Assembly: GCA_963721485.1 (NCBI GenBank)
Contig: CAVRJV010000014.1
Location: forward strand, 139,134 to 203,133
Reading direction: 5' to 3'
DNA from: an uncultured delta proteobacterium
GTDB taxonomy: Bacteria > Desulfobacterota > Binatia > Binatales > Binataceae
Length of the DNA: 64,000 nucleotides
Shown here in pieces: positions 31,818 to 63,773 of this stretch (position 1 is the stretch's first letter; every line of letters starts with the position of its first letter). The notes beneath the pieces were generated by a model. The model was not told the DNA's origin. It did no database searches and saw nothing but the letters and a program-made list of their open reading frames with translations. A program made the translations under genes and the position numbers.

Positions 31818-33750
<1,933 letters not shown>

Positions 33751-33800
33751 GCTCGTCGGCGTACAGCAGATTCGCGCGCGAGTCGCGCGGCGCAGCGACG

Positions 33801-35844: not shown

Positions 35845-36655
35845 ATGCCTGCGCTGATTTTCGAAAAACGCGAATCACGTCGCTTATCTCACACTCAACC
35901 GGCCCGAGGTTCACAATTCGCTGAATCCCGAAATGCTCGTGAGCCTCGCGGCGGCGTGGAAGGAGATCGATGAGCGACGACGCGGTTCGCGCGACGATCG
36001 TGACGGGCGCGGGCAAGGTCGCGTTCTCGGCCGGCGCCGATCTCGGGCAGTTGATTCCGCTGTTCACCGGCGCGCGCAAGCCCGAGGACGAATGGGACAG
36101 CAAGCTGCTCGCGGACCGCAAGCTCGGCGATATCGCGCTGCTGCGCGGCTACGACATGGACAAGCCGGTGATTTCGGCGGTCAACGGATTTTGCATCGCG
36201 GGCGGAATGGAATTCATCCAGGGCACCGATCTTCGCGTCGCGTCGGAGAACGCGAGCTTCGGCTTGCAGGAAGTGAAGTGGGCGATCATCCCGGCGGCCG
36301 GATCGCTGGCGCGACTTCAGCGGCAGATTCCGTACTGCAAGGCGATGGAGATTCTGCTGACGGGCAACCGCATCGACGCGCAGGAGGCGTGGCGGCTCGG
36401 GACTCGTCAACTACGTCGTGCCGCAGGAGAAGCTGATCGCGAAGGCGGAAGAACTTGGCGGCGACGATCGCGCAGAACGGACCGCTGGCGGTGCGCAAGA
36501 TCAAGGAAGCGGTGCGGCGAACGTCGGGGCGTCCGTACGAAGAGGCGTTCAAGATCGAAAACGAAATCGCGCGCGAGGTGATGAAGTCCGAGGACGCGAA
36601 GGAAGGTCCGCGCTCGTTCATGGAGAAGCGCAAGCCCAACTACAAAGGCCGATAG
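35845..36655 (+). CDS. enoyl-CoA hydratase/isomerase (crotonase) family; frameshifted
   Basis: AAGGAG lies 8 nt upstream of ATG 35845. ORF 35970-36581 gives IVTGAGKVAFSAGADL and ISAVNGFCIAGGMEF. ORF 36455-36655 gives the C-terminus EGPRSFMEKRKPNYKGR. Confidence 0.8.
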
Positions 36656-36658
36656 CGA

Positions 36659-37672
36659 TCAAGCTCCGGCGAGCGCGCGCATCGTGTTGGGATAGTCGCG
36701 CGACGTAGTGGCGGCGGGGCCGATCGGAAAGACCACGGGATGCGTGACGCCGGCGGCGCGGAAGCGCGCGACGAAATCGCGCCCTGCCTGCGCATTTCCG
36801 AACACTGCGATCTTGCGGCACGATGCTTCCGAGATGGCTCTGGGAGCCTCGTCGCGCTTGCCTTCCTTCCACAGCCGGCGCACCTCGTCGAACTCGGCGG
36901 CGAGTCCGTAGCGCGCGAACATCTTGTTGTAGCTGTCGACGAATGCGTAGCCGCCAGCTCGCGCCGGAACGAATCGACCGCTTTCGCTTCGTCTTCGGTG
37001 ATGCACATGCGGATGTAGATGCCGACGTCGACGGCGGACGGGTCGCGCCCCGCGGCTTTGGCGCCCTCGGCGATGTGCTGCACCATCTGCGGGATCGCCT
37101 CGGGCGGCGAGTAGTTCATCAGGACGCCGTCGGCGACTTCGCCGGCGAGGCGCAGCATCGGCGCGTTGAGGCCGGCGAGATAAATTTTCGGCGGACGCGG
37201 CGCCGTGATGCGCATGCTCAGCTTGAAGTCGGACTTGTACACCTCGCCCTGGAACTTCGAGCGGCCCTCGGTGAACAGCTGGCGCATGATGGTGACGCAT
37301 TCGCGCATCGCGGTTACCGGCTTGCGATACGACGCGCCGTGCCATCGCTCGACGATGATCGGACTCGATACGCCGAGCCCCGCGATGGCGCGGCCGCCCG
37401 ACAGTTCGTTGATGGTGAGGAATCCCATCGCCATCGCGCCCGGCGTGCGAATCTGCATCGGGATGACGCCGGTCGCGAGTTCGGCTTTGCGGGTGTTGAC
37501 CGCGAGCGCGGCGAGACTGACGAACGCGTCGGGGCCGCTGACTTCGGCGATCCACAGACGAAGTGTAGCCGAGGTCCTCGGCCTCGCGGATGAGTGCGAG
37601 GCGGGCGGGGAGAGCGTCGTCGCCGACGCCGACGTTGGTTTGAAGTCCGAGCTTTTGGGCTGATGGCATCAT
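36659..37672 (-). CDS. LLM-class (luciferase-like) flavin/F420-dependent oxidoreductase; frameshifted
   Basis: ORF 36659-37672 gives the N-terminus MMPSAQKLGLQTNVGVGDDALPARLALIREAEDLGYTS. ORF 36640-37458 gives the core (GRAIAGLGVSSPIIVERWHG...YLAGLNAPMLRLAGEVADGVLMN). Confidence 0.7.
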   Translation of the reverse strand: MMPSAQKLGLQTNVGVGDDALPARLALIREAEDLGYTSSVDRRSQRPRRVRQSRRARGQHPQSRTRDRRHPDADSHAGRDGDGIPHHQRTVGRPRHRGARRIESDHRRAMARRVVSQAGNRDARMRHHHAPAVHRGPLEVPGRGVQVRLQAEHAHHGAASAENLSRRPQRADAAPRRRSRRRRPDELLAARGDPADGAAHRRGRQSRGARPVRRRRRHLHPHVHHRRRSESGRFVPARAGGYAFVDSYNKMFARYGLAAEFDEVRRLWKEGKRDEAPRAISEASCRKIAVFGNAQAGRDFVARFRAAGVTHPVVFPIGPAATTSRDYPNTMRALAGA

Positions 37673-37902
37673 AAACTCTGCTAGTGGTTCCAGTCAGTTT
37701 GACGAGATTCCTACCATAGGTTGTGGTCAAGGGAGGATCGATCCACCAGGGGTCGTTTCGTTCCGTAAATAATGTGCTTGCAACAATGCGGTGGCCGCCG
37801 GTTCTTCGGATCGAGGAGCTAACGTCTCGGAGGGTCCCATAGCTTAGGAGTAGCACGTCAAATCGGGTTGGGTAAGGCTGAAAAGTTCATCCCCCCGAAG
37901 GT

Positions 37903-38008
37903 GCGCTGCGCGATTTCGGAGACCGGAACCGGCTTCGGTTGCGCGAAGCTGTGCGAGGTCCTTCCTCCCGTCGCTATCGCTCCGGTCGTCAGGATGAGAC
38001 AAGAGAGG
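37903..38008 (+). repeat. intergenic repeat family A, copy 1 (about 105 bp, internal hairpin ggcttcgGTTGCGcgaagc)
   Basis: Copies 1 and 2 are about 87-90% identical; copy 3 at 62297-62400 is roughly 80% identical. All three are in the same orientation. Indels between copies break any reading frame, so the element is non-coding. Confidence 0.8.
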
Positions 38009-38104
38009 GAAGAGCTGTCAGTTCATTTCGAATTTGAGTTGCGCAGAGTGGGCGGGTATTCGATTATGGCTGCGAGAAGAAAGCGAGACAGGGAGCGGTG
38101 AACG

Positions 38105-38865
38105 ATGGCTTACTTTGATTCCGACGGCGTGCAGATTTATTTCGAGGAACATGGTACGGGCGAGCCGGTCGTGCTGGTGCATGGGTTTGCGTCGCGCGCG
38201 GAGCATAACTGGGGTCTGACGAGTGGTACACCGCGCTCGCACCGCACTATCGCGTCATCGCGCTTGATTGTCGCGGTCATGGCAAGAGCGGCAAGCCGCA
38301 CGATGCGGGGGCATACGGCGGCGAGACGATGGGCGACGACGTCATTCGGCTCATGGACCATCTCGGAATCAGGCGGACGTTGATCATGGGCTACTCGATG
38401 GGCGGGCGAATCGTGACGGGACTGCTGATGCATCATCCGGAGCGTCTGTGCGCGGCAGTGCTTGGCGGAATCGGGGCGGCAACTGCGACAGAGCCGTCAT
38501 TCGATCGCAAGCCGATCGTCGATGCGTTGCTCGCAGAGAGCGATGCAGGCGTTAAGGAGCAGCGCGAACGGGAATTTCGCCAGTTTGCGGAGGCTGCCGG
38601 CAACGACCTGAAGGCGTTGGCGGCGTGCATGGGATCGAATCGCGAAGATTTCACAGCGGAACAGATTGCCGCGCAGAAGATTCGCGTGCCTGTGATGATC
38701 GTGATCGGGACGAAGGATCTGCTGGTCGGCAATCCCAAGCTGCTGCACGACGCGATTCCCGGCAGCAAGCTGGTGATGCTTGAGGGACGCGATCATCTGA
38801 ACGCTCCCGGCGACCATCGCTACAAGGAAGCGGTGTTGGAGTTTTTCAAATCGGCGCCAGCGTAA
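38105..38865 (+). CDS. alpha/beta-fold hydrolase; one frameshift near 38225
   Basis: VVLVHGFASRA is followed by the nucleophile elbow MGYSMGG and a C-terminal His region (GRDHLNAPGDH) in ORFs 38105-38383 and 38329-38865. Confidence 0.8.
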
Positions 38866-38879
38866 TAATTTGAGATCGA

Positions 38880-39302
38880 TCAGATATCAGATGCGCGGGT
38901 GAAGTCGGCGGCCGGCCGGTTCAACCATCTGAAGATCCGCATTACGCCGGGGAACACGACTCGTTTTCCTTTCGACAGGTGTATCAGGCTCGCGACGTTT
39001 GTGCCGATTTCCTTTGCGACCTCGGGCCATGTGATTTCTCTCTCGAGGCGGCGAGCGTCGAGCGCCGCATAGATCTTCTTCGCGTCGAATCGTAGAACCT
39101 TGCCGGGGGGAACGTCCGGCAGGCGCGCATCGATCTGTTCCGACTCGCGGTAGCCCGGCATGAAACTCTCCGGCGTGCGATTCAGCCATCGGAGCATCGC
39201 GAGCACGCCGTCACCCTCGGCGGCTGACCTGGTGCGGGTGCCCGTCATCGTAGATGCGCTGAGGCGACGAGCGGTGGCAGGGCGCTGGTGCATCTGATGC
39301 AT
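38880..39302 (-). CDS. hypothetical protein with an internal tandem duplication of an approximately 45-aa module
   Basis: ORF 38880-39539 contains RLRTLYNALDAQRRARGLSWSGVTREM and KKIYAALDARRLEREITWPEVAKEIG, each followed by ...LRWLNRTP / ...FRWLNRP. The upstream part overlaps repeat A copy 2 and is unlikely to be coding. The start is uncertain. Confidence 0.35.
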   Translation of the reverse strand: MHQMHQRPATARRLSASTMTGTRTRSAAEGDGVLAMLRWLNRTPESFMPGYRESEQIDARLPDVPPGKVLRFDAKKIYAALDARRLEREITWPEVAKEIGTNVASLIHLSKGKRVVFPGVMRIFRWLNRPAADFTRASDI

Positions 39303-39431
39303 TTCTCTCGTAACTCCCGACCACGAGAGTCCGCGCGCTCGGCGCTGCGCGTCGAGCGCGTTATAGAGAGTGCGAAGACGGAAGTCGTTCGATGACGCCA
39401 CGGTTGTTATCTCGGGACCGATTCTAGAAGA

Positions 39432-39536
39432 GCGCTGCGCGATTTCAAAACCGGTACCGGCTTCGCTTGCGCGAAGCTGTCCGAGGTCCTTCCTCCCGTC
39501 GCTAACGCTCCCGTCGTCAGGATGACACGAGAGTCG
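39432..39536 (+). repeat. intergenic repeat family A, copy 2
   Basis: See copy 1. Copy 2 lies between the hypothetical gene and the gspN stop. Confidence 0.8.
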
Positions 39537-39551
39537 CATTTCTCGCGTCGT

Positions 39552-40382
39552 TCAGCTGATTCGGGGGGCGGTTAGGGTGCCGGTCAGGTGGTAGGGTTGG
39601 GGGCCCGGGGGGTGGGGCAGGGTTGAGAGGAGCATTCCTAGTTGGGCGGAGGCGGCGGGAGTCGTCGATAGGGTGAACTGGATTGCGAGCGCACTTTCGC
39701 CAGGATCGGGCGCTAGTTGGATTGTTCCCTCAGCGGTCAACGTCAAGTCGCCGCCGCTCGTCTTGAATTCCTCGATCGTTAGCGTGCCTTGATCCAGTTT
39801 GAATTTTGAATGGCCCTGGCCGAGACGGATTGGCGACGATGCCAGCGGCGACACCAGCGTCAAGCCGGCGGCGCTCAGGTCGCCGCCGCCGCTTTCCGCG
39901 ATGTCATCGGAAGAGAGCAAGAGACTGCCGCTGCCGGAGAGTCTGCCCGACGCGTCGGCGCCGGGAATCGCGACGAAGTGCTGACGCGCGATATCCACCG
40001 AGTTGAGGTCGTAGCTGATTGCGGTGCCGCCGCTGCTGGGACGGAGCATGACGTTGACGATGCCGTCGAAGAGCGCGGCCTTCACGCGGACGCCCGGATG
40101 CATCGAGAGCATCGAGAGAAACGCAGGCGCGATCGTTACGGTTGGGCTCTCGACGATCAGCCCGGGGGAGGCGGGACGCGTGGAGATCAGGCGCACTTCG
40201 GAAAGCCGCGCGCCGAAGGGGAAGCTCGCGCTCTGACTCGTGCTCGAGACCTCGAGGCCCATCGGCGCGAGCAGTTTCGACAGAGTGGCGGAGTAGGGGA
40301 AGGTGGAAATCAGGTACGCGGCGAACAGCGTGAGGCCGACCACCGCGTAGCCGACGCGCACGAGAGCCGGTCGCCGCAGCAT
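39552..40382 (-). CDS. gspN: type II secretion system protein N
   Basis: It is the last gene of the gsp operon. The N-terminus MLRRPALVRVGYAVVGLTLFAAYLIS is a signal anchor, followed by a periplasmic domain. Both size (about 276 aa) and position match GspN. Confidence 0.65.
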   Translation of the reverse strand: MLRRPALVRVGYAVVGLTLFAAYLISTFPYSATLSKLLAPMGLEVSSTSQSASFPFGARLSEVRLISTRPASPGLIVESPTVTIAPAFLSMLSMHPGVRVKAALFDGIVNVMLRPSSGGTAISYDLNSVDIARQHFVAIPGADASGRLSGSGSLLLSSDDIAESGGGDLSAAGLTLVSPLASSPIRLGQGHSKFKLDQGTLTIEEFKTSGGDLTLTAEGTIQLAPDPGESALAIQFTLSTTPAASAQLGMLLSTLPHPPGPQPYHLTGTLTAPRIS

Positions 40383-40404
40383 GGCGGAGACGCCGCCGTT
40401 TAAA

Positions 40405-41049
40405 TCAGGTGTTCTTGGCGAGCGCGACACAGGTGAGGTCAACGTCATACGAATGCGTGTCCTGGGTGCGGCGCTGGATGCGGATATTCGATACGCCAAT
40501 CGGCATCGAGAGCGAATTGATGCCGTAGAGGGCGTCAACCAACTGCGCGAGATTCACGTTGTCGAGCTTCAACTGCACGCTGTACTCGGTGAAGCCGTCG
40601 CTGAGCTTGCGATCGGAGCCGGGCGTGATCGAGCCGATCTTCTCGCGTCCGACGCTCTTGGTCATCGACGCTTCGACGACCGAGAACAGCGAGAAATCCT
40701 TGCCCATCGGCACCGTGCGACGCTCGGCGTTGGCGAGGTCGCCCTTGAGCTGCGCATAGGTGGCGGCGAGACGGCGAACCTGCGCGAGATCGTTCTGCCG
40801 CTGGGCAATCTTCGCGTCGAGCCCCGAGCTGAGGTCGACGATCGGCGTATAGACAAGATTGTAGATGAGAAAAACGCCGACCAGGCCGGCGGCGATTTGC
40901 ACCAGGATGCGTTCGCGCGGCTCGAGTTTCTGATAGCGGCTGCGCGCCTGCGCGAGATAGGGATCGATGCGGACAGCCGCCTGCTTAAGCCACGGCCGAA
41001 GCAGGTCCATCACTCGTGCGCGCAAATTGTCGATCCATTCTCTAAGCAT
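40405..41049 (-). CDS. gspM: type II secretion system protein M
   Basis: The ORF is intact at 214 aa. It has an N-terminal TM helix (ILVQIAAGLVGVFLIYNLVYTPI) and sits between gspL and gspN. Confidence 0.75.
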   Translation of the reverse strand: MLREWIDNLRARVMDLLRPWLKQAAVRIDPYLAQARSRYQKLEPRERILVQIAAGLVGVFLIYNLVYTPIVDLSSGLDAKIAQRQNDLAQVRRLAATYAQLKGDLANAERRTVPMGKDFSLFSVVEASMTKSVGREKIGSITPGSDRKLSDGFTEYSVQLKLDNVNLAQLVDALYGINSLSMPIGVSNIRIQRRTQDTHSYDVDLTCVALAKNT

Positions 41050-41054
41050 GGCAG

Positions 41055-42564
41055 CTATTCGTCACGACCGTCCGACGGTAAGTCACGATCGGCGGCCGGC
41101 GCCGCGTCCTTGAAGTCGGCGTCCATCCGAAAATCCACTTTGCTCGGATCGGAGCCGGCCTTGGCATGGGCGACTTCGATCGAGCCGAAGAAGCCGCTCT
41201 GGTCGAGCGCGCGTTTCGCCTGATCGACGGTCGCGAACGAATCGGCCTGGCCGGTCACGCGAAGTCCCTGCGAATCGATCTGAACGTCGGCCATCTGCAC
41301 CGGGAATCGCGGCGGCAATGCGCGCGAGACCGCGACCAGAGTGTCGAGCGGCGAGTGAGTCAGGTTGCCGCCGATCAGATTAAGCCGCTTGTTCATCTTC
41401 GACGATTCCGAGTCTGCAACTGTTCCTTGGCGTTGGCCGGGTCGGTTTCGCCCAGCACCGGCCCGGCGACAGCGCGGCGATTTGCGCGTTGACCTGGCTG
41501 AGCCGATGGAGATTGGCGGACACACCCAGCGCGAAGTGAAAAACGATCACGGCGCACCAGCGCCGCGGCGAGAATCCCCGAAGTGTAGAACGGGCTGAGG
41601 TCGCCGCGGATGCGCCCGCGGAACATGAACTCGCCCTGGCGGAAATTGATCAGTTCGAGCCGGCTCGGCCGGCAACTCGCCGAGCAGCATCGCGACACAC
41701 GACGAATACTTGCCGGTGTTCGGCACCGAGCCTTCGAAGAGGCCGGTGTAGTCGAAGGCGCCGCCGTCGCGCACCGACATGGCGAGCGAATCGGACAGCA
41801 GGCCGCGCACCTTGGGATACGCCGCCGCCGCGCCTGCGACGATCACCTCGGTCTGTTCGGTCTCCTCGCCATGTGCGAGCAGGGTCTGACGCACCGAGTT
41901 GAGAATCGGCGTCGCCGCATCCTGCGAGACCGCCGAGCCGTCCGACATCATCAGCCCGCCGCTGCATCGAGCGCAGCGCGCGCGGCGTGCCGTCCGGATC
42001 GACCAGCACCACCGAGGTGGAGCCCTCGTCGCCTTCGACCACCAGGTGCGCCACCGGCTTGTCGCCGTTGCCGTTGCTTCGCGCGCGTGAACATGGCGGC
42101 CAGCGCGAGCGGCGCCAGCGTGACAATCTTGGGATCGAGTCCCGCCTTCTGCAGCAAATCGAGATGGTGCTGGAGGTCGGCCTTGCGCACCATCGCGGCC
42201 ATGACCAGCGTGTGCTCGCCCTCGCGCCCGACCCGGGTGAACGCGACGGTGCCATTGTCGACCGGGAACGGGCAGATGCTCTTCCAGCGCGAACGGCACC
42301 ACCTGATGCAGCCGGCGCGCATCCTTGAACGGCAGATCGAGCAGGCGCTTGACGACGAGATCGCGCGGGCAGCGCCGAGATCACGATGTCGGGCTGGCCG
42401 GCCTCGGCGACCAGCCGCGAGAGCGCGCCGCGAGGTCGGCTTCGTCGTCGGCGCGCACCTTGTCGAACACGCCGGCCAGCGTGAACGAATTCCACGATGC
42501 GCTCCGCGACTGCCGCGCGCACGCGGTCGCCGGCGAATTCCAGCGCAAGTATTCGTTGAGCCAT
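41055..42564 (-). CDS. gspL: type II secretion system protein L; frameshifted
   Basis: A cytoplasmic actin-like domain (VVPFALEEHLPFPVDNGTVAFTRVGREGEHTLVMAAMVRKADLQHHLDLLQKAGLDP) lies in ORFs 41951-42322 and 41547-42302. A TM segment follows, and the periplasmic C-terminus (ORF 41055-41525) ends ...FKDAAPAADRDLPSDGRDE*. Confidence 0.7.
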
Positions 42565-42579
42565 CAGCCGCCTTGCCCC

Positions 42580-43528
42580 TTAATCTTCATGCCACGCCGC
42601 GAGCGTGCCGATGCCGTTGGACTCGCGATGGAACGTTGCGGTAATAATTTTGCGCGCGCCCGCAAACGTACCCGTGCCGGTAATCGTGAAGAACTGGCTG
42701 CGCATGACCACGTCCTTCGACAGGAGCCTGCGCGACGTCGGCCGAGATCGGGAAGGTTCATGATGTCGGTGACCTGGGCGAACGGCCGAATCGCGCGGGC
42801 ATCGAGAATCTCCAGCACGAGCTTTTGATCCTCCGTCAACTGCGGCTCGAGCGCTGCCAGCACTTGCGGCGACGCGGTGTTGGCGTTCACCTCCGGCTCG
42901 GGCATTACCGTCAGGAACGGACTGACGCGGTTGAAAATCGCCTCGTTGAATCCCTGGACCATCTGCAAGTCGCCGATCGTCGGCATCGGTCCATAACGCG
43001 GCTAATACGGCGGCCTCAATCCCATGTAGTAGTCGCCGACGCTGCTGTTCTGCGAGTTGCCGTTCGGCGTTATCCAATCGACGATACCCTGAACGAGGTC
43101 GACATTCACGTTGAGAATCGTGAAGAGCCGCTGCACCTTCATTATCGCGGCCTGGTTGGGGACACCGTTCTGGACCATCGCGTTAATTGGCATCTTGCGC
43201 GCTTCGTCGACGATCGACAACGAGACAGTGCCGCCCTCGAGCTGTATCGGCGGAAACGGCGTCGCCCATGCCTCGACCGAGGTTGTCGGTCGGGGTTTGC
43301 GACAGGAGATCGTTGCGCGCGTCGGCCGCGAGCAAGCCGAGACCGATACCGATTGCCGAGCGCGACGAGGTAGCTGGCGCGCAGCTCGTTGGCCTGGTTC
43401 GCCGCCGACACGAAGCCGAGTCCCGAGGTCATCGCGAAGTCCACGACGATCAGCGTCATCAGCGCGATTCCCAGCAGGACCGCCAGCAGCGCGACGCCGC
43501 GCTCATTTTTGCGCAGCTGCTTTACCAT
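42580..43528 (-). CDS. gspK: type II secretion system minor pseudopilin K; frameshifted
   Basis: The N-terminus MVKQLRKNERGVALLAVLLGIALMTLIVVDFAMTS has its ATG at 43526-43528. The C-terminal parts are in ORFs 43002-43220, 42564-42986 and 42580-43077. Confidence 0.7.
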
Positions 43529-49654: not shown

Positions 49655-50444
49655 ATGGATCTGAAATTCATCAAGTACGAGAAGCGCAACCACATCGCCT
49701 ACATCACCTTCAACCGGCCCGAGCGGATGAACGCGCTGCATCCGCCCTGTCACGTCGAGATGGACCAGGTGTGGGACGACTTCGTCGCCGACAAGTCGGC
49801 GTGGGTCGCGATCGTCACGGGCGCCGGCGACAAGGGCTTCTCGGCCGGCAACGATTTGCGCTGGACCGCGGAGAATCGCGCGGCAGGTCTCGGAGGTGCT
49901 TCGCAGGCCAAGGGCGGCTTCGCCGGCATCACCGCGCGCTACGACATCTACAAGCCGATCATCGCGGCGGTGAACGGCTTCGCGCTCGGCGGCGGATTCG
50001 AGATCGCGCTCGCCTGCGACATCATCATCGCAGCCGAGCACGCGCGCTTCGGGTTGCCGGAACCGCGCGTCGGCCTGATGGCGGCGGCGGGCGGCGTGCA
50101 TCGCCTCCCGCGGCACATCCCGCTCAAACTCGCGATGGGCATGATGCTGACGGGCAAGCACATCACGGCGGCGGACGCGCTGCAATTCGGAATCGCCAAC
50201 GAGGTCGTGCCGCTCAAGGACTTGATTCCGACGGCCGAGAAATGGGCGGCGCGAGATCATGGAATGCTCGCCGCTGTCGGTGCAGGCCACGAAGCAGGCC
50301 GCGATGGACGGCCTCGGCCTGCCGGTGGAAGACGCGAACGCGAAGCACTACGACTGTGCGACGAAACTTTCGGCATCGAAGGACGCAATCGAGGGCCCGC
50401 TGGCATTCTCGGAAAAGCGAAAACCGAACTGGACGGGAGAGTAG
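49655..50444 (+). CDS. enoyl-CoA hydratase/isomerase family; frameshift near 50250
   Basis: AYITFNRPERMNAL, IVTGAGDKGFSAGNDL and IAAVNGFALGGGFEIALACD are in ORF 49640-50491. The C-terminus (EGPLAFSEKRKPNWTGE) is in ORF 50259-50444. Confidence 0.8.
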
Positions 50445-50831
50445 GGCGGCTCGCCCGAGGCGGGCGCTTGGAGGCGAGGAGTCGCAGCTAGAATGCACGA
50501 ACTCTGGCTACTGCACGACACGATCGCATCGCTAGTCGTCGGCGCGACGACGGCAGCCTTCCCGCCGGTCGACACGGGCGCATTCTGGACCATCGTCGCG
50601 TTCTACGGCGTAGTCTCGATTTTCTTCGACGACGAAACCCCGCGCGGCGTCCCCGGCATGGATTACTTCTACGCCACCAGGCCGCATCTGAAAGATCCGC
50701 AGAGTTAAGCGGCTGCGCTTCCGAAGAAAATTGTAGCGGCGAGAACAAAAGGTTTGACCAAATGTGGGCCCTTTCGTTTGACATATGGCATGCACGGGTT
50801 GTGTCCGGTTGTGCTACGATTACCGCCATAG

Positions 50832-51089
50832 GTGACAGGCATGCCGATAAATTCTGTGATCCCCTCTCCGATTTTCGAGACGCTCGGGGCGTCCGAGGAA
50901 ACCCTGCGGTCCACGCTCGCCGAGCTGGCCGAAGACAAACGCAAGCAGCGGCCGAACATCTCGGAGCGCAAGCTCGCTGAGTACCTGGCCGATCAGATGG
51001 GCTATCGCGGCGCAAAGAATGTCGAGGCGCTGGTGGCCTCGCGCGAGCGAATCGCGAAATCGCGGCAGGCCGTTGGCTTGAACAAGTAG
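50832..51089 (+). CDS. hypothetical small protein (85 aa)
   Basis: Support is an ORF only. It is charged and helical (LAELAEDKRKQRPNISERKLAEYLADQMGYRGAKNVEALVASRERIAKSRQ). Confidence 0.3.
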   Translation: MTGMPINSVIPSPIFETLGASEETLRSTLAELAEDKRKQRPNISERKLAEYLADQMGYRGAKNVEALVASRERIAKSRQAVGLNK

Positions 51090-51095
51090 TTCCCC

Positions 51096-51816
51096 TCAGT
51101 GCCCGAGGTGGCGGCCGAAGAACGCAGCGATGCGTGTCCAACTGTCTTCGGCGGCCTCGGGATTGTACTCCGCCTTCATCGGGCCGATTTTCCCGATCCA
51201 CGGCAGGAATCCGCTGTTGCGGCTCATGAAGCTGTGGCCCGCGTCTTCGTAGACTTTCACGTCGTGATCGATTCCCATCTCGGTTAGCAGCTTTTCGAGC
51301 CGGCGTCCCTGCGCCGCGAACATGCGATCTTGCCCGCCGTAGCCGCCGAGCACGGGACATACACCGCGTAACTGATCGGCAGTTTTCGGTACGTCGCCGT
51401 AGAATGTCGCGGCGACGCCGAGCGGAGCGCGCGCCGCGTACATCAGGGCGAAGCCGCCGCCCATGCAAAAGCCGATCACACCGATACGCGCAGTGTCGAC
51501 GCCGGGTTGTTGCTGCAGGAAAATCCGCGCCGCATCGAGATCCTCGAACGCGTCGCCCTCGCCGCGATTCAATGTCATCAGCGTGCGCGCGATACAGATG
51601 AGACGCGCGCCTTGTCGATCATAGAGGTCAGGCGCGAGGGCTGCGTAGCCGAGGTCGGCGACCATCCCGGTGATACGCCGGATGTCGTCGTTGAGCCCGA
51701 AGATTTCGTGGATAACGATCACGCCGGGATGTTTCTCGACGCCGGCAGGCGCGGCATAAGCAGCGCGCATCGGGCGTCCGTCGTCGAGCGGGGAAGGTGA
51801 TGTCAGTGGTGGTCAT
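51096..51816 (-). CDS. dienelactone hydrolase family protein; N-terminal frameshift
   Basis: HPGVIVIHEIFGLNDDI is followed by the nucleophile motif GVIGFCMGGGFAL and a His region (YEDAGHSF). The N-terminus MTTTDITFP (ORF 51628-51816) is in another frame. Confidence 0.8.
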
Positions 51817-51830
51817 CGGATACTCCTTAA

Positions 51831-51889
51831 CACTGGGTGCAGGGGGTCCCCCCTGCCGAAGGAAGTTTGAAACCCACCGCGGGTTTCAA
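51831..51889 (-). repeat. intergenic repeat family B, copy 1 (inverted orientation; hairpin tgaaacccNNNNgggtttca + cttccttcggcaggggNNcccctgcac)
   Basis: Its reverse complement matches the 5' part of the copies at 52838-52929 and 56213-56304. Confidence 0.75.
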
Positions 51890-51895
51890 GTTAGA

Positions 51896-52777
51896 TTAAT
51901 TCTTCTTGTTCCCTTTTTTCTTCGACGCGCGATTCTTCGAGCGCGGGCCCGAGCCATAATCGCCGAATGGATCGTCGCGATCGCGGACTGCCTGCCGAAA
52001 TCCTGCTGCTTGCGCGCGCGCGACGAAATCGAGGCCTTCCTGCGTGTGCCGCGCGATCCCGTCGAACAGCGATCCAACCAGCCTCGACGTCGCGAGGCCC
52101 ATATTCTCCGCCGTGTGATTGCAGAGCAGCTTCAGCATCTGCAGTTGATTCGTCGGCACTCGCGCCATCCGCTCGGCCAGCGCGGTCGCGCGCGCGTCGA
52201 GTTCGTCGTCGGGGACGGTTTCGAGAATCAGTCCGATACGCGCAGCTTCGGGCGCGGGGATTTCATCGCCGGTCAGCAAGTAACGCTTGGCGCGTTCGAG
52301 GCCCATCCGATAGACCCACATCGCGGTGGTCGGCGTGCCCCACACCCGCGACGGCGGATAGCCGAACGACGCCGACTCGGCGGCGATGATCAGGTCGGCG
52401 CATAGCACCATGTCGGTGCCGCCGCCGATACACCATCCGTGAACCGCGGCGATAGTCGGTTTCCGCGCGTACCAGAGCTTCATGTAGACGTTGACGTATT
52501 GCGAGATCATCCCGTAGTCGGCGACCGAGTCCCACACGCGCTTGCGCGACCCTTCGCCGGCCTGCGCGCGGGTCGAGCCGTCGAGTGCGTAGCCGGCGCA
52601 GAACGCGGGACCCTCGGCGCGAAGCAGGATTACGTGGACGCCTGGGTCGGCGTCGGCGCGATCGATCGCGGCGGCCAGCTCGTCGCGCAGGTCGGGAGTG
52701 ATCGTGTTGTACTCGGCAGCGCGCGTGAGCGTGATGATACCGACGCCGTTGCGAGTCTCGGTGCGCAGAGTTTTCAT
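51896..52777 (-). CDS. enoyl-CoA hydratase/isomerase family
   Basis: The ORF is intact at 293 aa. It carries ILLRAEGPAFCAGYAL and IAAVHGWCIGGGTDMVLCADLIIAAE. Confidence 0.85.
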   Translation of the reverse strand: MKTLRTETRNGVGIITLTRAAEYNTITPDLRDELAAAIDRADADPGVHVILLRAEGPAFCAGYALDGSTRAQAGEGSRKRVWDSVADYGMISQYVNVYMKLWYARKPTIAAVHGWCIGGGTDMVLCADLIIAAESASFGYPPSRVWGTPTTAMWVYRMGLERAKRYLLTGDEIPAPEAARIGLILETVPDDELDARATALAERMARVPTNQLQMLKLLCNHTAENMGLATSRLVGSLFDGIARHTQEGLDFVARAQAAGFRQAVRDRDDPFGDYGSGPRSKNRASKKKGNKKN

Positions 52778-52837
52778 GGGAGTCGGATATAGCAGAGCAC
52801 GTAGGGAAAGGGGGAAGGGCAGATCACTTTATTTTAA

Positions 52838-52929
52838 TGTGAAACCCGACGTGGGTTTCACGCTTCCTTCGGCAGGGGTAACCCCTGCACCTTGGCATCA
52901 AGAAAAGATGCGGGACTTCGTCCCTGTTA
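52838..52929 (+). repeat. intergenic repeat family B, copy 2
   Basis: The sequence is tgtgaaacccgacgtgggtttcacgcttccttcggcaggggtaacccctgcac...agatgcgggacttcgtccctgttag. It is about 90% identical to copy 3. Confidence 0.8.
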
Positions 52930-52952
52930 GAACGTTTGAGCGACGAGCGTCG

Positions 52953-56204: not shown

Positions 56205-56530
56205 TAATTTAATTTGAAACCCACGGTGGGTTTCAAACTTCCTTCGGCAGGGGTGACCCCTGCACCCAGTAATATAAAGAGATGCGGGACTTCGTCCCTG
56301 TTAGGAACTCGTTTTGGGAGAGGCGGCGGCCGTCCGGGTTCCCTCCTCCTACGTGGGAGGAGGGTTAGGATGGAGGACAAATGCGCCGCGCAAATTTCTG
56401 GAGCACGGCACGTTCCTGTGCGGGTACGAGCAGCAATCAGAAATTTAGAAATTAAGGTCCTCCACCCGCCGTGCGCGAACGCACGTCGGCCTCCTCCCAC
56501 GAACGGAGGAGGCGAGGATAGGATTGTCGT
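56205..56530. repeat. composite REP/BIME-like array: repeat family B copy 3 (56213-56304) plus at least two further hairpin modules
   Basis: Family B copy 3 (56213-56304) is followed by a gttccctcctcctacgtgggaggagggttagg hairpin (56336-56376) and a 56457-56525 module matching 8293-8345. The array fills the intergenic space between the hydrolase and bcp. Confidence 0.8.
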
Positions 56531-58327: not shown

Positions 58328-59253
58328 ATCCGCGGAGAAATCCGTTGCCGCTCAATCCTCGACAGCCTGAACGCCACCGCGCCCGCGCTATGGCTCGAAG
58401 TGTCGCCGCCGCGCGGAATCAATCCGGCGCCGCTGCTGCACCAACTCGGTGAGCTGGCGGGGCATGTCGATGCGATCAATCTGACCGACAATGCGCTCGG
58501 GCAAGGTGAAGATGTCGGGGCTGGTGTTCGGCGCGGCGATCAAGGAGCGGCTTGAAAATTCCGGTCGTGCTGAACGTCTCGTGCCGCGACCGCAACCGCT
58601 TCGCGCTGAAGTCCGATCTGCTGGGCGCGGCCGCGATCGGGATCGACGCAGTGGTCGCGCTCAACGGCGACAAGATTCCGCCCGGCGCCGACGGCAATGC
58701 GATCGTCTCGCACGATATCGACGCCTACGCGCTGCTCGCGATGGTCGCGGCGCTGAATCGCGGCGATACCGGCGAGGGCAAGGCGCTGCTCAAAGCGATC
58801 CCGTCGCTTGTCGCGGGCTCGGTCGCCAATCCGAATCGAAAAAATATCGAGCGCGAGTTCGAGCTGCTCGAGCGCAAGGCCGCCGCGGGCGCGCGCTTCG
58901 TGATCACGCAGCCGGTGTTCGACGCCGAGACCGGCGCGCCGCTTCGTCGGCGAAGGCGCAACAGCCTGGGAATCAAGACGATGCTCGGTATCCTGCCGGT
59001 CAAGCGCGAGGCGATGGCCGACTACCTGATCGACCGCGTGAAGGACCTGAGCGGCGCGCGCAGCCATCTGGACAGATACGCCGGGATGAGCGAAGAAGAG
59101 GTGCGCGCGATGTCGATTCGCGAGAACCTGGCGCTGATGAAGTCGTTGGCTCGCGACGCGGCCGGGTTCATCATCATGAGCGGCGGCGGCCCGTCACTCG
59201 CGATCGAGCTGGCGCTCCAGTTCAGCCGGTGGCGCAAGGAGATCGGTAAATGA
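58328..59253 (+). CDS. methylenetetrahydrofolate reductase-like (MetF family) protein; N-terminal frameshifts, start not identified
   Basis: ORF 58552-59253 is MetF-like ([38 protein letters not shown]...[11 protein letters not shown]). The N-terminal segment ([24 protein letters not shown]) is in another frame beginning right after the thrB stop. Confidence 0.55.
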
Positions 59254-59893
59254 ACCGAACTCAGGCAAATGGCTCGCAGGCCAAAGTGGCGGCGGTAAAA
59301 GACGGCACTGAGCCGAATGACGCGGTCGGCCGCGACAAGCTCGAAGATGCGGTCCGCGTGATCCTGCGGCATATCGGCGAAGACCCGGAGCGCGAGGGAC
59401 TCGAGCGCACGCCGGCGCGCGTCGCCAAAGCGTACGAGTTTCTGACCAGCGGCTACGCGCAGGATCCGAAGGAAGCGATCAACGGCGCGCTGTTCCCGAA
59501 GAGGATTACCAGGAGATGATCCTGTGCAAGGATCTCGATTTCTATTCCCTGTGCGAGCATCACCTGCTGCCGTTCATGGGCAAGGCGCATGTCGCGTATC
59601 TGCCGAATCGGAAGATCGTCGGGCTCTCGAAGCTGGCGCGGATGGTCGAGATTTATGCGCGGCGGCTGCAGGTGCAGGAGCGGCTGACGACGCAGATCGC
59701 GCAGACTCTGATGTCGGAGATCGACCCGCTGGGCGTCGCGGTGGTGCTCGAGGCCGAGCATCTATGTATGCGGATGCGCGGCGTCGAGAAGCAGAATTCC
59801 TACGTCACGACGTCGGCGATGCTGGGGGTGTTCCGCACCAATCACGAAACGCGGCACGAGTTCATGCAGTTGCTGAGGAATGGGCAGCCGTAA
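59250..59893 (+). CDS. folE: GTP cyclohydrolase I; frameshift near 59500
   Basis: ORF 59250-59519 gives the N-terminus ([19 protein letters not shown]). ORF 59516-59893 gives the catalytic core ([22 protein letters not shown]...[21 protein letters not shown]). Confidence 0.85.
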
Positions 59894-59909
59894 AAGGCGT
59901 CTAGGTGTC

Positions 59910-60872
59910 ATGGTTAGGGTTCACTTCATAAACGTAGGCCACGGTGACTGCACCATAATCGAGCACTCAAGTGGTAACCTCACGATGATCGATATTAACA
60001 ACGGCGACGATCTTGATTCTGAATCTGCGCGGGACATCGCAAAGGCTTACGGGATCGAGAACTACGGGATTAAATCAGCCTTGGCAAAGGCGCTCGGCGA
60101 GAGCCGAGAAGAGCTGTTAGAAAAATCGGGTTATGACATCGAATTGACGAACCCAGTGCTTTTTTTCAAGGGAAAATATCCGAATCGTGGATTGTTCCGA
60201 TACATCCAGACCCATGCAGACCTCGATCACATGCGAGGCCTAGTGGCGCTGCGAAATGAGGGAATTGGCATCCAGAACTTCTGGGATACAAACCATGATA
60301 AAGAACCAGACTTTCATTGGCCCGGGGACAGGGAGGAATGGAATGAGTATCTCCAACTCGCGGAAGGGAATCGTGGAAACACAACGCTGTACCTGACGCG
60401 TGACCAACATGGGCAATTTTACAATCGCGACAGCGGTGGGAACCCTCCCGGAGATGGATTAGAAATCCTGTCTCCTCCTCCAGAGATGATGACGGAGATT
60501 AGAAAAGGCGTTGATACAAATAACCTAAGTTACGTACTTCGCCTGACGTATAAGGGAATCGTCGTGATCTTCGGAGGAGATGCCGAAGACAGGGCATGGG
60601 ATTCGATCGTCGACCACTACGGCGATAACCTGAAGTGCCAGGTGCTTAAGGCTAGCCACCATGGGCGAGATTCAGGGTTCCATCAGGAAGCCGTCAAGCT
60701 CATGAATCCCGATTTCACTATTGTTTCGGTTGGAAAAAAACCGAGCACCGATGCCAGCAACAAGTATCGGCAGTATTCGAAAAACGTGTGGTCGACTCGC
60801 TGGCGCGGAAACATAACGCTCACCATTCCTGATAGCGAACAGGCGAGAATCGACTCAGAATACGACAGGTGA
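59910..60872 (+). CDS. stand-alone metallo-beta-lactamase-fold protein of the ComEC/Rec2 C-terminal nuclease type; intact frame, low-GC
   Basis: VHFINVGHGDCTIIE, THADLDHMRG (HxDxDH) and VLKASHHGRDSGF parallel the MBL domain of the comEC gene in this window (SVGEGDGAVVRF, SHPDLDHFGGL, LKVPHHGSATS). The ATG at 59910 is preceded by AAAAGG/AGGTG. Local GC is about 50% against about 67% in the flanks. Confidence 0.8.
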   Translation: MVRVHFINVGHGDCTIIEHSSGNLTMIDINNGDDLDSESARDIAKAYGIENYGIKSALAKALGESREELLEKSGYDIELTNPVLFFKGKYPNRGLFRYIQTHADLDHMRGLVALRNEGIGIQNFWDTNHDKEPDFHWPGDREEWNEYLQLAEGNRGNTTLYLTRDQHGQFYNRDSGGNPPGDGLEILSPPPEMMTEIRKGVDTNNLSYVLRLTYKGIVVIFGGDAEDRAWDSIVDHYGDNLKCQVLKASHHGRDSGFHQEAVKLMNPDFTIVSVGKKPSTDASNKYRQYSKNVWSTRWRGNITLTIPDSEQARIDSEYDR

Positions 60873-61537
60873 TCATGCGCGGGTTCGAGTTCTATGAAAT
60901 CGTGGGAGTTTTGGTTCCCGGAAGCATTTTGCTCGTCGGGATCTCCATCTTGTACCCCCAAATTCGCTTGTCGCCCCAGGATGCTAGCGTAGCCGTCGGA
61001 GAGTTTGGGATCTTCACGCTGCTCGCATACGGGATGGGACATCTTCTGCAAGCCATCGGCAACGCGTTGGAATGGATGTGGTGGCACCTCTGGGGTGGGC
61101 TTCCAAGTGACTGGATCAAATCGACCGCGCATCCACTGCTTTCCGAGAATCAAAGGGCGACACTTCTGACTCAAATCGGCCGAAAGCTAGGTGTTACAGT
61201 TCCGGCAGACCCAACCACTATTGATGCGCCTGCCTGGTTCGGAATCACTCGACAAATGTATGCGGCAGTAGCTGGGGCAGGGCGTTCTCAGCGCATCGAT
61301 ATTTTCAATGCAACTTATGGGCTATCGCGTGGTATCGCCGCCGCAGCAGTCTCTCTGGCCGCGCTTGTGTTGGTCGAGCAAGGCTGCAACGGCCTGAAGA
61401 CAGCGGCGCTTTTGTTCGGAGCCTGCGCTATCGCAATTTATCGGATGCACCGCTTCGGTAAACACTACGCGCGCGAGCTGTTTGTCCAGTTCCTTCAGCT
61501 TCCGATGCCGGTGAACACCGAGGGACGTGCTGATTGA
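60869..61537 (+). CDS. hypothetical polytopic membrane protein (4-5 predicted TM helices); intact frame, low-GC, translationally coupled to the MBL gene
   Basis: The 222-aa ORF overlaps the MBL stop (ATGA). Hydrophobic segments are VGVLVPGSILLVGISILY, FGIFTLLAYGMGHLLQAIG, IAAAAVSLAALVLV and TAALLFGACAIAIY. No family is recognisable. Confidence 0.55.
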   Translation: MIMRGFEFYEIVGVLVPGSILLVGISILYPQIRLSPQDASVAVGEFGIFTLLAYGMGHLLQAIGNALEWMWWHLWGGLPSDWIKSTAHPLLSENQRATLLTQIGRKLGVTVPADPTTIDAPAWFGITRQMYAAVAGAGRSQRIDIFNATYGLSRGIAAAAVSLAALVLVEQGCNGLKTAALLFGACAIAIYRMHRFGKHYARELFVQFLQLPMPVNTEGRAD

Positions 61538-61618
61538 AGGACTCTGCTCCACGCTCCTAGGTGGTGTTGCTCGCTTAATCGCGGAGCTGGGATCACTCTG
61601 AGTGTTTGATAGAAAACT

Positions 61619-62290
61619 ATGCCGGCTGATGATGCATCGCTGGAGGCGCTGGGGCGGTATGCGCTCCGGTACGTTAAGCCGGGGCAGACCTGGGTCTCGG
61701 CACCGGGCGGGCGGCCAGTGCGTTCATTCGGGCTTGGGAGCGAGCGGGATTAGCGTGCGCGGAGTGCCCACTTCCAAGGCGTCGGAAGAGTTGGCAAGGT
61801 CGGTGGGGATTCCGATCGTTACGTTGACCAGGCGGGAAAAATCGACATTGATATTGACGGGGCCGACGAGGTCGATCCGCGGCTCAATCTGATCAAGGGC
61901 TATGGTGGCGCGCTGGTGCGCGAGAAGATCGTGGCCGCGTCGTCGCGGCGGTTTGTCGTGCTGGTCGGTTACGAGAAGATCGTGAAGTGGCTGGGCGAGC
62001 GCGGGCCGCTTCCGGTCGAAGTGATGCCGTTCGGGTTGTCGCTGGTGAGGCGAAGATCAAGGCGATGGGGATGAAGCCGCAGGTTCGCGAAAAAGACGGT
62101 CAAGCAGTACATCACAGATAACGGCAACCTGATTCTCGACTGTGCGGTGAAGAAGATTGCGAATCCGGCGCGGCTGGATCGCGAGCTGCTCGCGATTCCG
62201 GGCGTGGTCGGCACCGGGTTGTTCATCGCGATGGCGGACGTGGTGCTGGTGGCGGAAGAGTCGGGGAAGATTCGCGCGTTCAAGCGGTAA
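61619..62290 (+). CDS. rpiA: ribose-5-phosphate isomerase A; about 3 frameshifts
   Basis: The N-terminus MPADDASLEALGRYALRYVKPGQT has its ATG at 61619. It is followed by VGLGTGRAASAFI (shifted frame) and VPTSKASEELARSVGIPIVTL...IDIDIDGADEVDPRLNLIKGYGGALVREKIVAASSRRFVVLV...GVVGTGLF. Confidence 0.8.
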
Positions 62291-62296
62291 GGAGGA

Positions 62297-62400
62297 GCGC
62301 TGCGCGATGTTCAGAACCGGAACCGGCTTCGCTCGCGGCGAAGCTGTCCGAGGTTCCTCCTCCCGTCGCTTCGCTCCTGTCGTCGGAATGACACACAGAC
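62297..62400 (+). repeat. intergenic repeat family A, copy 3
   Basis: See 37903-38008. It lies between the rpiA stop and the glycerate kinase start. Confidence 0.8.
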
Positions 62401-62418
62401 GTTGCTCGCGTCGTCAGA

Positions 62419-63773
62419 ATGACCGAGCTGCCGATGGCAGAAAGCGCAAGAGGGCCGATCTCGAGAAGATTTATCGCGCTGCGGTGGCGGCTGTTGATCC
62501 TGCGCTGCTCGTCGGCATCGCGATGGATGGGCGATGTTCCGGCGCGGAGCAGGTTCCCGATTTGATTGCGGGCGCGTCGCGAATTCTGCTGCTCGCGGTG
62601 GGCAAGGCGGCGGGCGCGAATGGCGCATGAAATCGAACGCCGCGTCGGGGACAGGCTCGCCGATGGAATCGCCGTGATCCCACGAAAGATCAGCGGGCGG
62701 CAGCGGCGCTGCTGTCGCCGGGATCGAAGATGCGAGTCGTTCGCGTCGAGTCATCCTGTCCCTGACGAGTCGTCGGAGCAAGCGGCGCTGTTGGCGTGCG
62801 AGATGCTGCATGGGGCGACGGCCGACGACCTGGTGATCGTCGCGATTAGCGGAGGCGCGTCGGCGATGTTCACGCTGCCTGCCGAGGGGCTCACGCTCGC
62901 CGACAAAATCGCGGTCAACGAGGCGCTGCTGAAAGCCGGGGCGTCGATTCGCGAGCTGAATACCGTGCGCAAGCATCTGTCGGCCGTGAAAGGCGGACGC
63001 CTGCTTGCCATTGCGGCGGAGCGCGCGTGCTCGGGCTGATTACTGTCCGATGTGCCGGGCAATGATTTGGCGACGATCGGGTCGGGGCTTGACTGCGGCG
63101 GACTGGAGCAGCTTCGGCGACGCCGTCTCGGTGATGAAGCGGCGCGGCGTGTGGGGGCGCGCGCCGGAGGCGGTGCGCTCGTACCTGGAGCGAGCGGTGG
63201 CGGGCGAAGTGGGCGCGACGGTGAAGACCGGCGATCCGATTCTCGAGCGCGTGACCAACGTGATAATCGGCGACGGCAATCTGGCTCTGGAAGGCGCCGA
63301 GCGGGCCGCGGTCAGAACTTGGGTATCATCCGCATCGATGGAAGGGGTTGCATGGCGAGGCTAACGACGCCGGCCGCGCAATCGCGGAGGACATGTGCGA
63401 GATCACACATGAGCGGGTGTGCGTCGTGGCGGGCGGTGAGCCGGTCGTGACGGTACGCGGGGGCGGGAAGGGTGGGCGCGCGCAACAATGTGCGCTGGCG
63501 ATGGGAATCGAGCTGTCGCAAATCGGGCGCGGGCGCCGAATCGCGGCGCTGGTCGCGGGCACGGACGGAATCGACGGGCCGACGGATGCGGCGGGCGCAT
63601 TTGCGTCGCCGGGCACGGTCGCCGATGGCGAGCGCGGCGAAGGTCAGTGCCGCGACCGCATTGACGCGCAACGACGCGTACAACTTTTTTCAAGGGGTCG
63701 GGCGGGCTGTTCATCGACGGGGCCGAGCGGGACCAACGTCAGCGACGTTTTTTTCGGGCTGGTGAATTATTGA
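62419..63773 (+). CDS. glycerate kinase (MOFRL family, glycerate 2-kinase/hydroxypyruvate reductase-associated type); about 4 frameshifts
   Basis: Segments lie across ORFs 62157-62630, 62566-63039, 63005-63364 and 63348-63773. They include EKIYRAAVAAVDPALLV, ILLLAVGKAAGAMA, DLVIVAISGGASAMFTLP, NTVRKHLSAVKGGRL, CVVAGGEPVVTVRGGGKGGRAQQCALA, GTDGIDGPTDAAGA and TGPSGTNVSDV. Confidence 0.75.

Follow-up and report, generated by a model that had tools for sequence, protein, structure and literature searches.

The 64,000-nucleotide stretch of contig CAVRJV010000014.1 analyzed here (hereafter the window) carries a 1.7 kb island, at positions 59894-61618, between the housekeeping genes folE and rpiA. 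Within the island are two open reading frames (ORFs) on the same strand. One encodes a stand-alone metallo-beta-lactamase (MBL) protein that resembles the C-terminal domain of ComEC, and the other encodes a membrane protein that probably belongs to the Csx27 family. Our favored reading, to which we give a probability of about 55%, is that the pair is a horizontally acquired cassette in a Candidatus Binataceae-like soil bacterium and works as an autonomous, membrane-associated nuclease defense module. The membrane protein, which would be translationally coupled to the enzyme, would use a basic loop and a basic tail to dock or gate the cytoplasmic nuclease on the inner side of the membrane. The nuclease would then cut either incoming foreign DNA at its point of entry or, after a trigger, any DNA. 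Where larger operons contain the pair, it would act as their effector end; the lone pair would be a minimal, self-contained system directed at phages or other mobile DNA.

The island is an insertion between folE and rpiA

A scan of metagenome contigs for relatives of folE returned 80 loci, and gene order was read in the closer relatives wherever there was sufficient downstream sequence. In these relatives the order is MTHFR-folE-rpiA-DUF4147, with a gap of about 30-100 nucleotides (nt) between folE and rpiA. This junction is empty in more than 45 related contigs, among them L098, which has a flank 91% identical to that of the window and 32 nt from the folE stop to the rpiA ATG. The island is therefore a real insertion. 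The same pair was found at the same locus in four contigs from other samples, L001-L004, with flanks 89% identical and the island 84% identical to the window. An assembly artifact is ruled out, as these four contigs are independent.

The GC (guanine plus cytosine) content of the pair is 0.525 over positions 59910-61537 (0.501 for the MBL gene and 0.560 for the membrane protein gene), compared to 0.615 in the left 5 kb and 0.642 in the right 2.4 kb. Island-sized stretches of the window average 0.629 (standard deviation 0.025), and none of 624 sliding windows was as low as the island. A reading of this DNA from its sequence alone (the sequence-only reading) had described the segment as a trough of about 50% GC with about 67% around it. 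The segment is indeed the lowest in GC in the window, but the flanks are at 62-64% and the island is at 52.5%. The foreign origin proposed there is supported by the empty junctions, that of L098 included, and by the low GC that persists in the pair-bearing relatives. Finding the pair at this locus in relatives with host-like GC had been put forward as a point against such an origin; L001-L004 do carry the pair there, but its GC is low in them as well (0.523 vs 0.622). Since the pair is shared by diverged lineages and its GC is still low, the acquisition appears to be old yet not ameliorated. The assignment of the host to a Candidatus Binataceae-like bacterium follows from the GspE protein of the window, all of whose named homologues (80-85% identity) belong to that family.

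Other small cargo was seen at the same spot. Genes resembling vapB/vapC were found there in L095, L097, L100, L101, L103, L104, and L107, and this cargo, either vapB-like or PIN/VapC-like, lies in either orientation (L095:6760-7056(-), L101:5971-6171(-), L103:3542-3706, L104:3435-3599, and L107:7179-7385(-)). In L001-L004, a VapB-like gene of 72 amino acids precedes the pair, an example being the orphan vapB-like gene upstream of the MBL gene at L004:2760-2978. The folE 3' end is also duplicated in these contigs: a degenerate copy of about 45 nt lies just before the MBL gene, and the vapB-like gene separates it from folE. Window positions 59858-59892 match both L001 8609-8643 and L001 8986-9020 by BLAST collinearity, and the duplicate in L004 was seen in its sequence. 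The window lacks the 342 bp that separate the two copies in its relatives, as would be seen if the repeats had recombined and the vapB segment had been lost. These alleles (empty, vapBC-filled, or filled with the MBL and membrane protein genes) mark the folE-rpiA spacer, which lies between two housekeeping genes, as a hotspot at which small cargo inserts.

Both ORFs of the island are intact. Their true starts are ATG 59910 and ATG 60875, as determined from homologues and from identical database proteins (P0241, 320 amino acids, and P0121, 220 amino acids). The sequence-only reading had seen that both were intact, but its lengths of 330 and 222 amino acids are too long, as the listed ORFs begin too early. 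Its overlap of the gene 2 start with the gene 1 stop (ATGA) was a mistake: 2 nt separate the gene 1 stop (TGA at 60870-60872) from the gene 2 ATG. The sole start that overlaps the stop, GTG at 60869, is an unlikely one. The island opens with a 16-nt leader (59894-59909, plus strand), which has a Shine-Dalgarno-like AGGTG at 59903-59907 and is kept in L004. Because there is no space in this leader for a promoter of its own, the pair is probably transcribed by readthrough from MTHFR-folE. A scan of the island region for promoters and terminators gave nothing above chance, with a single weak promoter-like match at 61606-61633.

The first gene encodes a ComEC-like MBL protein

Gene 1 (59910-60872, plus strand) encodes the 320-amino-acid, stand-alone MBL-fold protein, which was identified from its ORF, its homologues, an AlphaFold2 model, and a Foldseek search. 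It has 1154 homologues in a large protein collection, and these represent a family of more than 1100 clusters at 90% identity. Conservation of its motifs was read from an alignment of 42 homologues. The sequence-only reading had pointed to HxDxDH and HHG motifs in this protein, and both are present. The first is HADLDH (H102-A-D104-L-D106-H107, nt 60213-60230), and the second lies within SHHGR (H250-H251-G252, nt 60657-60665, with H250/H251 at nt 60657-60662). The protein also contains NVGHGDC at residues 8-14, GGDAE with D224 at nt 60579-60581, and VWSTRWRGN at residues 293-301. The corresponding consensus motifs of the family, hFLNVGHGDC, THPDLDHMRG, GGDAE, ASHHGR, and VWSTRWRGN, are invariant or nearly so. 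Residues H102, D106, H107, D224, H250, and H251 are invariant in the alignment, and position 104 is either Asp or His.

The AlphaFold2 model of the gene 1 product has a predicted local distance difference test score (pLDDT) of 88.4 and a predicted template modeling score (pTM) of 0.90, and residues 37-90 form a helical insertion in it, about 55 residues long. The best solved match in Foldseek was the ComEC beta-lactamase-like domain of Moorella glycerini (9ic4), with E 5.4e-16 and a TM-score of 0.75 normalized to the target. The second was the pneumococcal phosphorylcholine esterase Pce (Pce/CbpE), and MBL-fold proteins that bind or hydrolyze cyclic AMP (7e3w) were also among the structural matches. 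A run of the family profile against PDB sequences recovered 9ic4 (E 4.9e-15) as well as full-length ComEC chains, and every motif block was aligned. In both sequence and model, the protein has no signal peptide and no transmembrane (TM) segment, and its first residues form the first core beta-strand. The proposal of a ComEC-type MBL protein without the channel is thus supported by the rank of 9ic4 in both searches, the aligned motifs, and the lack of TM segments.

The ComEC C-terminal domain is extracellular and is a Mn-dependent phosphodiesterase/nuclease with HxDxDH as its motif II (Silale et al. 2021, PMC8579336). Defense-associated MBL proteins remotely related to ComEC are Zn-dependent nucleases of double-stranded DNA (PMC12642450). 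With the shared fold and motifs, but without a channel or an export signal, the gene 1 product is ComEC-like in fold and in probable chemistry but is not a ComEC. Its MBL fold and the ComEC-specific HxDxDH form of motif II make a metal-dependent DNA nuclease or phosphodiesterase its most likely identity.

A Pfam search of both island proteins gave no match. The NCBIfam model of the 6A-MBL enzyme scored 37.5 bits with gene 1 (cut-off 220), and the ComEC model TIGR00361 scored 30.2 bits (cut-off 190) over its last 100 positions only. The PADLOC model PDC-M48B gave 86.5 bits (E 4.8e-25) in a partial match of residues 101-301 to model positions 48-243 of 296. Three other PADLOC models, LmuA, RTasMBL, and Avs1a, matched the C-terminal half weakly, at 27-28 bits.

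The second gene encodes a membrane protein with a probable link to Csx27

Gene 2 (60875-61537, plus strand) encodes a putative inner-membrane protein of 220 amino acids with four predicted TM helices, at about residues 6-26, 41-72, 152-170, and 179-192, based on its ORF, hydropathy, an alignment of the family (A2), and an AlphaFold2 model (pLDDT 91.8). There are at least 230 homologues among the matches listed, and 1528 representative clusters match the family profile. Four polar residues of the second helix, H56, Q59, N63, and E66, are conserved in alignment A2. The loop between the second and third helices is about 75 residues long, basic, and strongly conserved, with the pattern …ITRQIYAAVAAAGR..RIDTFNGNYGLNRG. 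The C-terminal tail, YRMHRFGxHYARELFVQFLQLP, is also basic and has the family pattern YRMHRFG.HYARELFVQFLQLP. By the positive-inside rule, both the loop and the tail should face the cytoplasm.

The PADLOC model of Csx27 matched all 42 aligned members of the family, with a best E of 1.4e-8. The window protein itself matched it weakly, at E 0.0015, over model positions 3-171 of 206. The NCBIfam model CAS_Csx27 matched 11 of the 42 members (best E 0.0018) and did not match the window protein, and the related tm_4 model matched seven members. More distant partners, encoded upstream of MBL genes, match the same models. These profile matches suggest that the gene 2 product belongs to the Csx27 family, which is the sole family link that we found. 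No match to PDC-M48A was seen with the window protein at E up to 1, and one of its 42 relatives matched at E 0.03. A search for solved relatives of the gene 2 product, by structure or by sequence, found none. The sequence-only reading had called it an uncharacterized protein with 4-5 TM segments. It is indeed a multi-pass membrane protein, with four helices predicted, but it has a probable family link.

Related pairs are widespread and recur in defense operons

The pair was surveyed at the species level in a scan of one genome per species, which gave 80 loci, 73 of them with a full-length enzyme. The phyla found were Planctomycetota, Verrucomicrobiota, Cyanobacteria, Bacillota, Actinomycetota, Chloroflexota, Bacteroidota, Pseudomonadota, Acidobacteriota, and Armatimonadota, and the survey also includes several lineages of the candidate phyla radiation (CPR), Methanobacterium, and one haloarchaeon. 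Overall, the distribution is patchy and covers more than 12 bacterial phyla as well as archaea. An adjacent membrane partner of about 200-330 amino acids is encoded on the same strand at 58 of the 73 loci, in either gene order, and the two genes are closely coupled where they join. For the main cluster of partners (52 loci), the partner gene is directly downstream of the enzyme gene in 30 and directly upstream in 19. The GC of the pair is below that of its surroundings in 62 of 67 loci, with a median difference of -0.053.

Carriage by viruses and plasmids was also surveyed. Only two loci were found in the 2.9 million viral contigs of IMG/VR, and seven phage records gave weak matches. The idea that the pair is a phage-carried element was rejected on these numbers. 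Carriage on plasmids is rare and distant (11 records, at most 45% identity). One locus, L175, is on the conjugative plasmid pRUNSL03 of Runella slithyformis, where record positions 33700-43062 contain three MBL-fold genes, a SEC-C gene, small hypothetical genes, and a large serine protease gene. This cluster appears to be a defense-type MBL island with a distant relative of the window enzyme. Two truncated copies were seen in Crocosphaera (L089:10001-10399 and L090:1858-2415). In L090, one ORF of 185 amino acids matches the profiles of both the enzyme and the membrane protein, and it appears to have been left by a deletion and not to be a working fusion.

One of the larger settings is the Hma (helicase-methylase-ATPase) operon. 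In L005-L008, L017, and L022, the genes for the HmaA helicase, the MBL protein, the membrane protein, the HmaB methylase, and the HmaC ATPase follow one another in that order and overlap or abut. L025 has the same order with extra ORFs between the hma genes, and partial arrangements were found in Pelotomaculum thermopropionicum and L023. The Hma matches in L005-L008, L017, L022, and L025 score 497-501 bits for HmaA, 356 for HmaB, and 236 for HmaC. The enzyme of L005-L008 is 71% identical to that of the window, and type IV secretion genes adjoin these loci. Genes embedded in Hma have been used to predict defense systems, and seven of nine such predictions were confirmed (bioRxiv 10.1101/2024.01.29.577857).

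A second setting involves ubiquitin-like conjugation enzymes. A fused E2-E1-JAB gene, similar to Cap2/3, accompanies the pair in four of the 73 loci (L026, L031, L034, and L044). The L031 and L026 operons contain a 6A-MBL enzyme (363 and 434 bits, respectively, cut-off 220) and 6A-MBL_cap2_3 (541 and 565 bits, cut-off 320). In both, the 6A-MBL enzyme is a separate paralogue beside the window-type MBL protein. One protein, P0356, has E2-E1-JAB fused to a membrane domain of the gene 2 type. 6A-MBL is reported to be anti-phage in Pseudomonas aeruginosa (van den Berg et al. 2024, as cited in PMC13276650 and bioRxiv 10.1101/2025.09.30.679545) and is named among the defenses against jumbo phages. 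The literature also places "MBL pathways" in one group with type II CBASS and Pycsar, all of which employ a fused E2-E1 enzyme.

Some loci have other neighbors. A second MBL paralogue, a full-length member of PDC-M48B (290 bits), lies beside the pair in 13 loci. Genes for type I restriction-modification methylases adjoin the pair in four loci, and in L011 it adjoins a ParB-methylase gene, a terminase-like gene, and an AAA_5 gene. Homologous pairs, whose recurrence in defense islands had been proposed as a check, do recur in defense settings, namely the Hma-embedded loci and the 6A-MBL operons, and these and the related contexts make the defense-type role that had been guessed for the window pair plausible.

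Relation to known systems

The sequence-only reading had stated that a soluble ComEC-like nuclease with a membrane partner is not a described system. This is incorrect, considering the probable Csx27-family membership, the operons shared with 6A-MBL genes, the resemblance to PDC-M48, and comparative genomics from 2019. In that work (FEMS Microbiol Lett fnz088), Makarova, Gao, Zhang, and Koonin are said to have tied the Csx27 family to components of natural transformation, ubiquitin-like enzymes, and DNA-modification genes. The natural-transformation components reportedly included a ComEC-like MBL protein. That work, and with it the hypothesis that the Csx27 family takes part in DNA uptake or processing, is summarized in PMC7642515. 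The kind to which the window pair belongs has already been described computationally, and the window pair is a minimal form of that kind.

The pair resembles the Csx27 family modules in having a membrane protein of about 220 amino acids with four helices, a ComEC-like MBL partner, and relatives that occur with E2-E1-JAB and with the Hma methylase (DUF1156, DUF499). However, the window holds the bare two-gene core and has no cas13b, ubiquitin-like enzyme, WYL protein, or methylase gene. Csx27 proper, the accessory of type VI-B1, has a neighborhood of cas13b and a CRISPR array, in contrast to the folE and rpiA neighborhood of the window. The 6A-MBL system (NF058523, NF058524) is linked to the window-type pair by the operons of L031 and L026, where both occur together. 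PDC-M48, a two-gene PADLOC candidate (bioRxiv 10.1101/2024.01.29.577857), is similar in that its B component has the MBL fold and is matched over part of its length by the window enzyme at 86.5 bits. The C-terminal domain of ComEC/Rec2 (PDB 9ic4, 30bt, 9vc6) has the same fold and is the closest solved relative, and it shares with the window enzyme the HxDxDH motif II, an N-terminal VG(Q/H)GD, D-A/I-E, and HHG. In contrast to ComEC/Rec2, the 320-amino-acid window protein lacks the OB-fold and channel domains, has no export signal, and has the helical insert. The protease-activated MBL nuclease effectors of Avs, Hachiman (HamMAB), DRT, and Lamassu (PMC12642450; PMC13069673) also have an MBL fold remotely related to ComEC, and members of that clade are Zn-dependent nucleases of double-stranded DNA, but the window enzyme is partnered with a membrane protein and not with a protease.

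Since a defining feature of each was tested and is absent from the window pair, the pair is not a ComEC, a CRISPR-linked Csx27, a 6A-MBL, or a PDC-M48 system. It seems to be related to the Csx27-plus-MBL modules described in 2019 and probably works like them, and it resembles the accessory half of the extended 6A-MBL operons.

Weighing the possible roles

Several observations weigh against a defense module. The copy in the window has no defense neighbors and is flanked by MTHFR, folE, rpiA, and DUF4147, and the hmaA/hmaB/hmaC setting is absent from its locus. Lone pairs with unannotated or housekeeping neighbors make up about half of the surveyed loci, the window included. The window protein's own link to Csx27 is weak (E 0.0015). 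There is no cap2_3 gene in the window, and its MBL protein is a different paralogue from the 6A-MBL enzyme, far below the cut-off of that model. Likewise, its match to PDC-M48B is partial, and its membrane protein does not match PDC-M48A. The MBL domain of ComEC works outside the membrane, and the gene 1 product has no export signal. Also, because Pce is the second-best structural relative, the substrate could be a phosphodiester other than DNA. Lastly, the pair has been retained at its locus across lineages that are about 11% diverged, which also fits a domesticated function.

We still favor the defense module, given the contexts of the relatives. The pair is a clean, minimal, and intact example of a widespread module that links Hma embedding, 6A-MBL, and the Csx27 of type VI-B CRISPR. 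If it does defend its host by itself, the immune repertoire gains a membrane-associated nuclease system of two genes, and the pair would provide a simple handle on the function of the Csx27 family. A further idea is that the bare pair is a self-sufficient immune module and the ancestral core of 6A-MBL, the Hma-embedded cassettes, and Cas13b-Csx27, with the Csx27-like protein either licensing the nuclease as a gated membrane sensor or channel or acting as the effector. On that idea, an understanding of the minimal pair would also account for the role of Csx27 in type VI-B CRISPR immunity. We consider this idea rather unlikely.

Another possible explanation is that the Csx27-like protein is itself the effector, a gated channel that depolarizes the membrane, with the MBL protein as its sensor or activator or as the processor of a nucleotide signal. 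This would mirror type II CBASS, in which Cap2 conjugates the enzyme that signals to a membrane effector. In operons of the 6A-MBL type, an MBL protein takes the place of the CD-NTase that is modified by Cap2/Cap3-like enzymes. The cyclic AMP-binding or -hydrolyzing proteins among the structural matches (7e3w) would suit a nucleotide signal, and the conserved polar and charged residues of the second helix would suit a channel. In addition, Csx28, another type VI-B accessory, is a proven membrane pore (PMC12669027). However, DNA nucleases are the enzyme's best relatives, and the MBL protein that fits the 6A-MBL enzyme model in the four-gene operons is the other paralogue rather than the window type. 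No pore-like structural relative was found for the gene 2 protein. We regard this explanation as unlikely.

The pair could also serve DNA uptake or processing as a split analogue of ComEC, which is itself a channel joined to an MBL domain. The membrane protein would be a channel for single-stranded DNA, and the nuclease would degrade one strand or the imported DNA. The ComEC nuclease domain is the closest known relative of the enzyme, and such an idea for the Csx27 family, proposed in 2019, is summarized in PMC7642515. Nevertheless, the gene 2 protein has no likeness to the ComEC channel in sequence or fold, and the enzyme lacks an export signal while the MBL domain of ComEC is extracellular. 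No other competence genes were found near the pair, either at the window locus or at the surveyed loci, and the pair also occurs in defense operons, in archaea, and in CPR bacteria. A role in uptake is improbable on this evidence.

An addiction pair of the toxin-antitoxin kind, in which one protein is toxic and the other neutralizes it so that the pair is kept because its loss harms the cell, is similarly improbable. In favor of it are the small size, mobility, and low GC of the pair, as well as the vapB/vapC-like cargo of related contigs at the folE-rpiA junction and the orphan vapB ahead of the pair in L001-L004. The sizes of 320 and 220 amino acids and the membrane partner are atypical of type II toxin-antitoxin systems, though, and no DNA-binding antitoxin was found in the window. 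The Hma and 6A-MBL associations also indicate immunity. As many defense systems behave as toxin-antitoxin pairs, the addiction and defense explanations overlap.

A housekeeping or domesticated envelope phosphodiesterase like Pce, held in place by the membrane partner, is very improbable: Pce/CbpE is the second-best structural relative, and the pair is co-oriented and probably co-transcribed with housekeeping genes and is retained in diverged relatives, but most close relatives of the host lack the pair, its distribution is patchy, its contexts are mobile or defensive, and the enzyme has no export signal.

Junctions, flanking genes, and repeats

On the left, the island adjoins folE (59250-59893, plus strand), which stops with TAA at 59891-59893. 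This junction, the folE 3' end with its stop codon at 59858-59893 (plus strand), was placed by BLAST collinearity and alignment A3. On the right, a spacer of 81 nt (61538-61618, plus strand) runs from the gene 2 stop to the ATG of rpiA at 61619, as seen in the sequence and in the comparison with empty sites, where about 32-100 nt lie between folE and rpiA. The rpiA gene occupies 61619-62290. No tRNA gene, no convincing flanking direct or inverted repeats, and no nearby integrase ORF were found as signatures of a mobile element in the window, and an Rfam search of the window gave no match.

Comparison with intact orthologues showed that the flanking genes carry single-base frameshifts: one in folE (near 59502), five in rpiA (61690, 61734, 61824, 62049, and 62100), two in MTHFR, and three in DUF4147/MOFRL. 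There are none in the island. The frameshift-rich zone is at 58350-63310, with further examples at 58499 and 58549. The flanks have roughly 2.6 frameshifts per kb, a rate that predicts about four for a segment as long as the island; the P of seeing none is about 0.015 by our own Poisson estimate. The unevenness noted in the sequence-only reading is thus real. Its explanation, an error bias toward GC homopolymers, is unsupported, because runs of four or more G/C are equally dense in the island (3.1 per kb) and the left flank (3.2 per kb) and none of the flank indels is in a homopolymer run. The frameshifts are probably long-read consensus errors and not marks of pseudogenes. Breaks like those of the window flanks were also seen in L001 and L002, which come from assemblies with "contig_N" names.

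Two intergenic repeats were observed in the neighborhood. The first, about 100 nt long, is at window positions 56205-56305, 52833-52930, and 51832-51898 (inverted), and it has three GC-rich hairpins, GAAACCCACGGTGGGTTTC, GCAGGGGTGACCCCTGC, and GCGGGACTTCGTCCC. Copies are also present in L001 and L002, and it looks like a repetitive extragenic palindrome (REP) or a terminator-type element. The second, also about 100 nt long, has copies 88% identical at 62295-62394, 39430-39528, and 37922-37990, one of them just 3' of rpiA, and L001 has related copies in two places. Near 52-53 kb the window ceases to be syntenic with its closest relatives, and window positions 50000-51888 match L001:14288-19932 in reverse. 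This break points to an inversion or rearrangement beside copies of the hairpin element.

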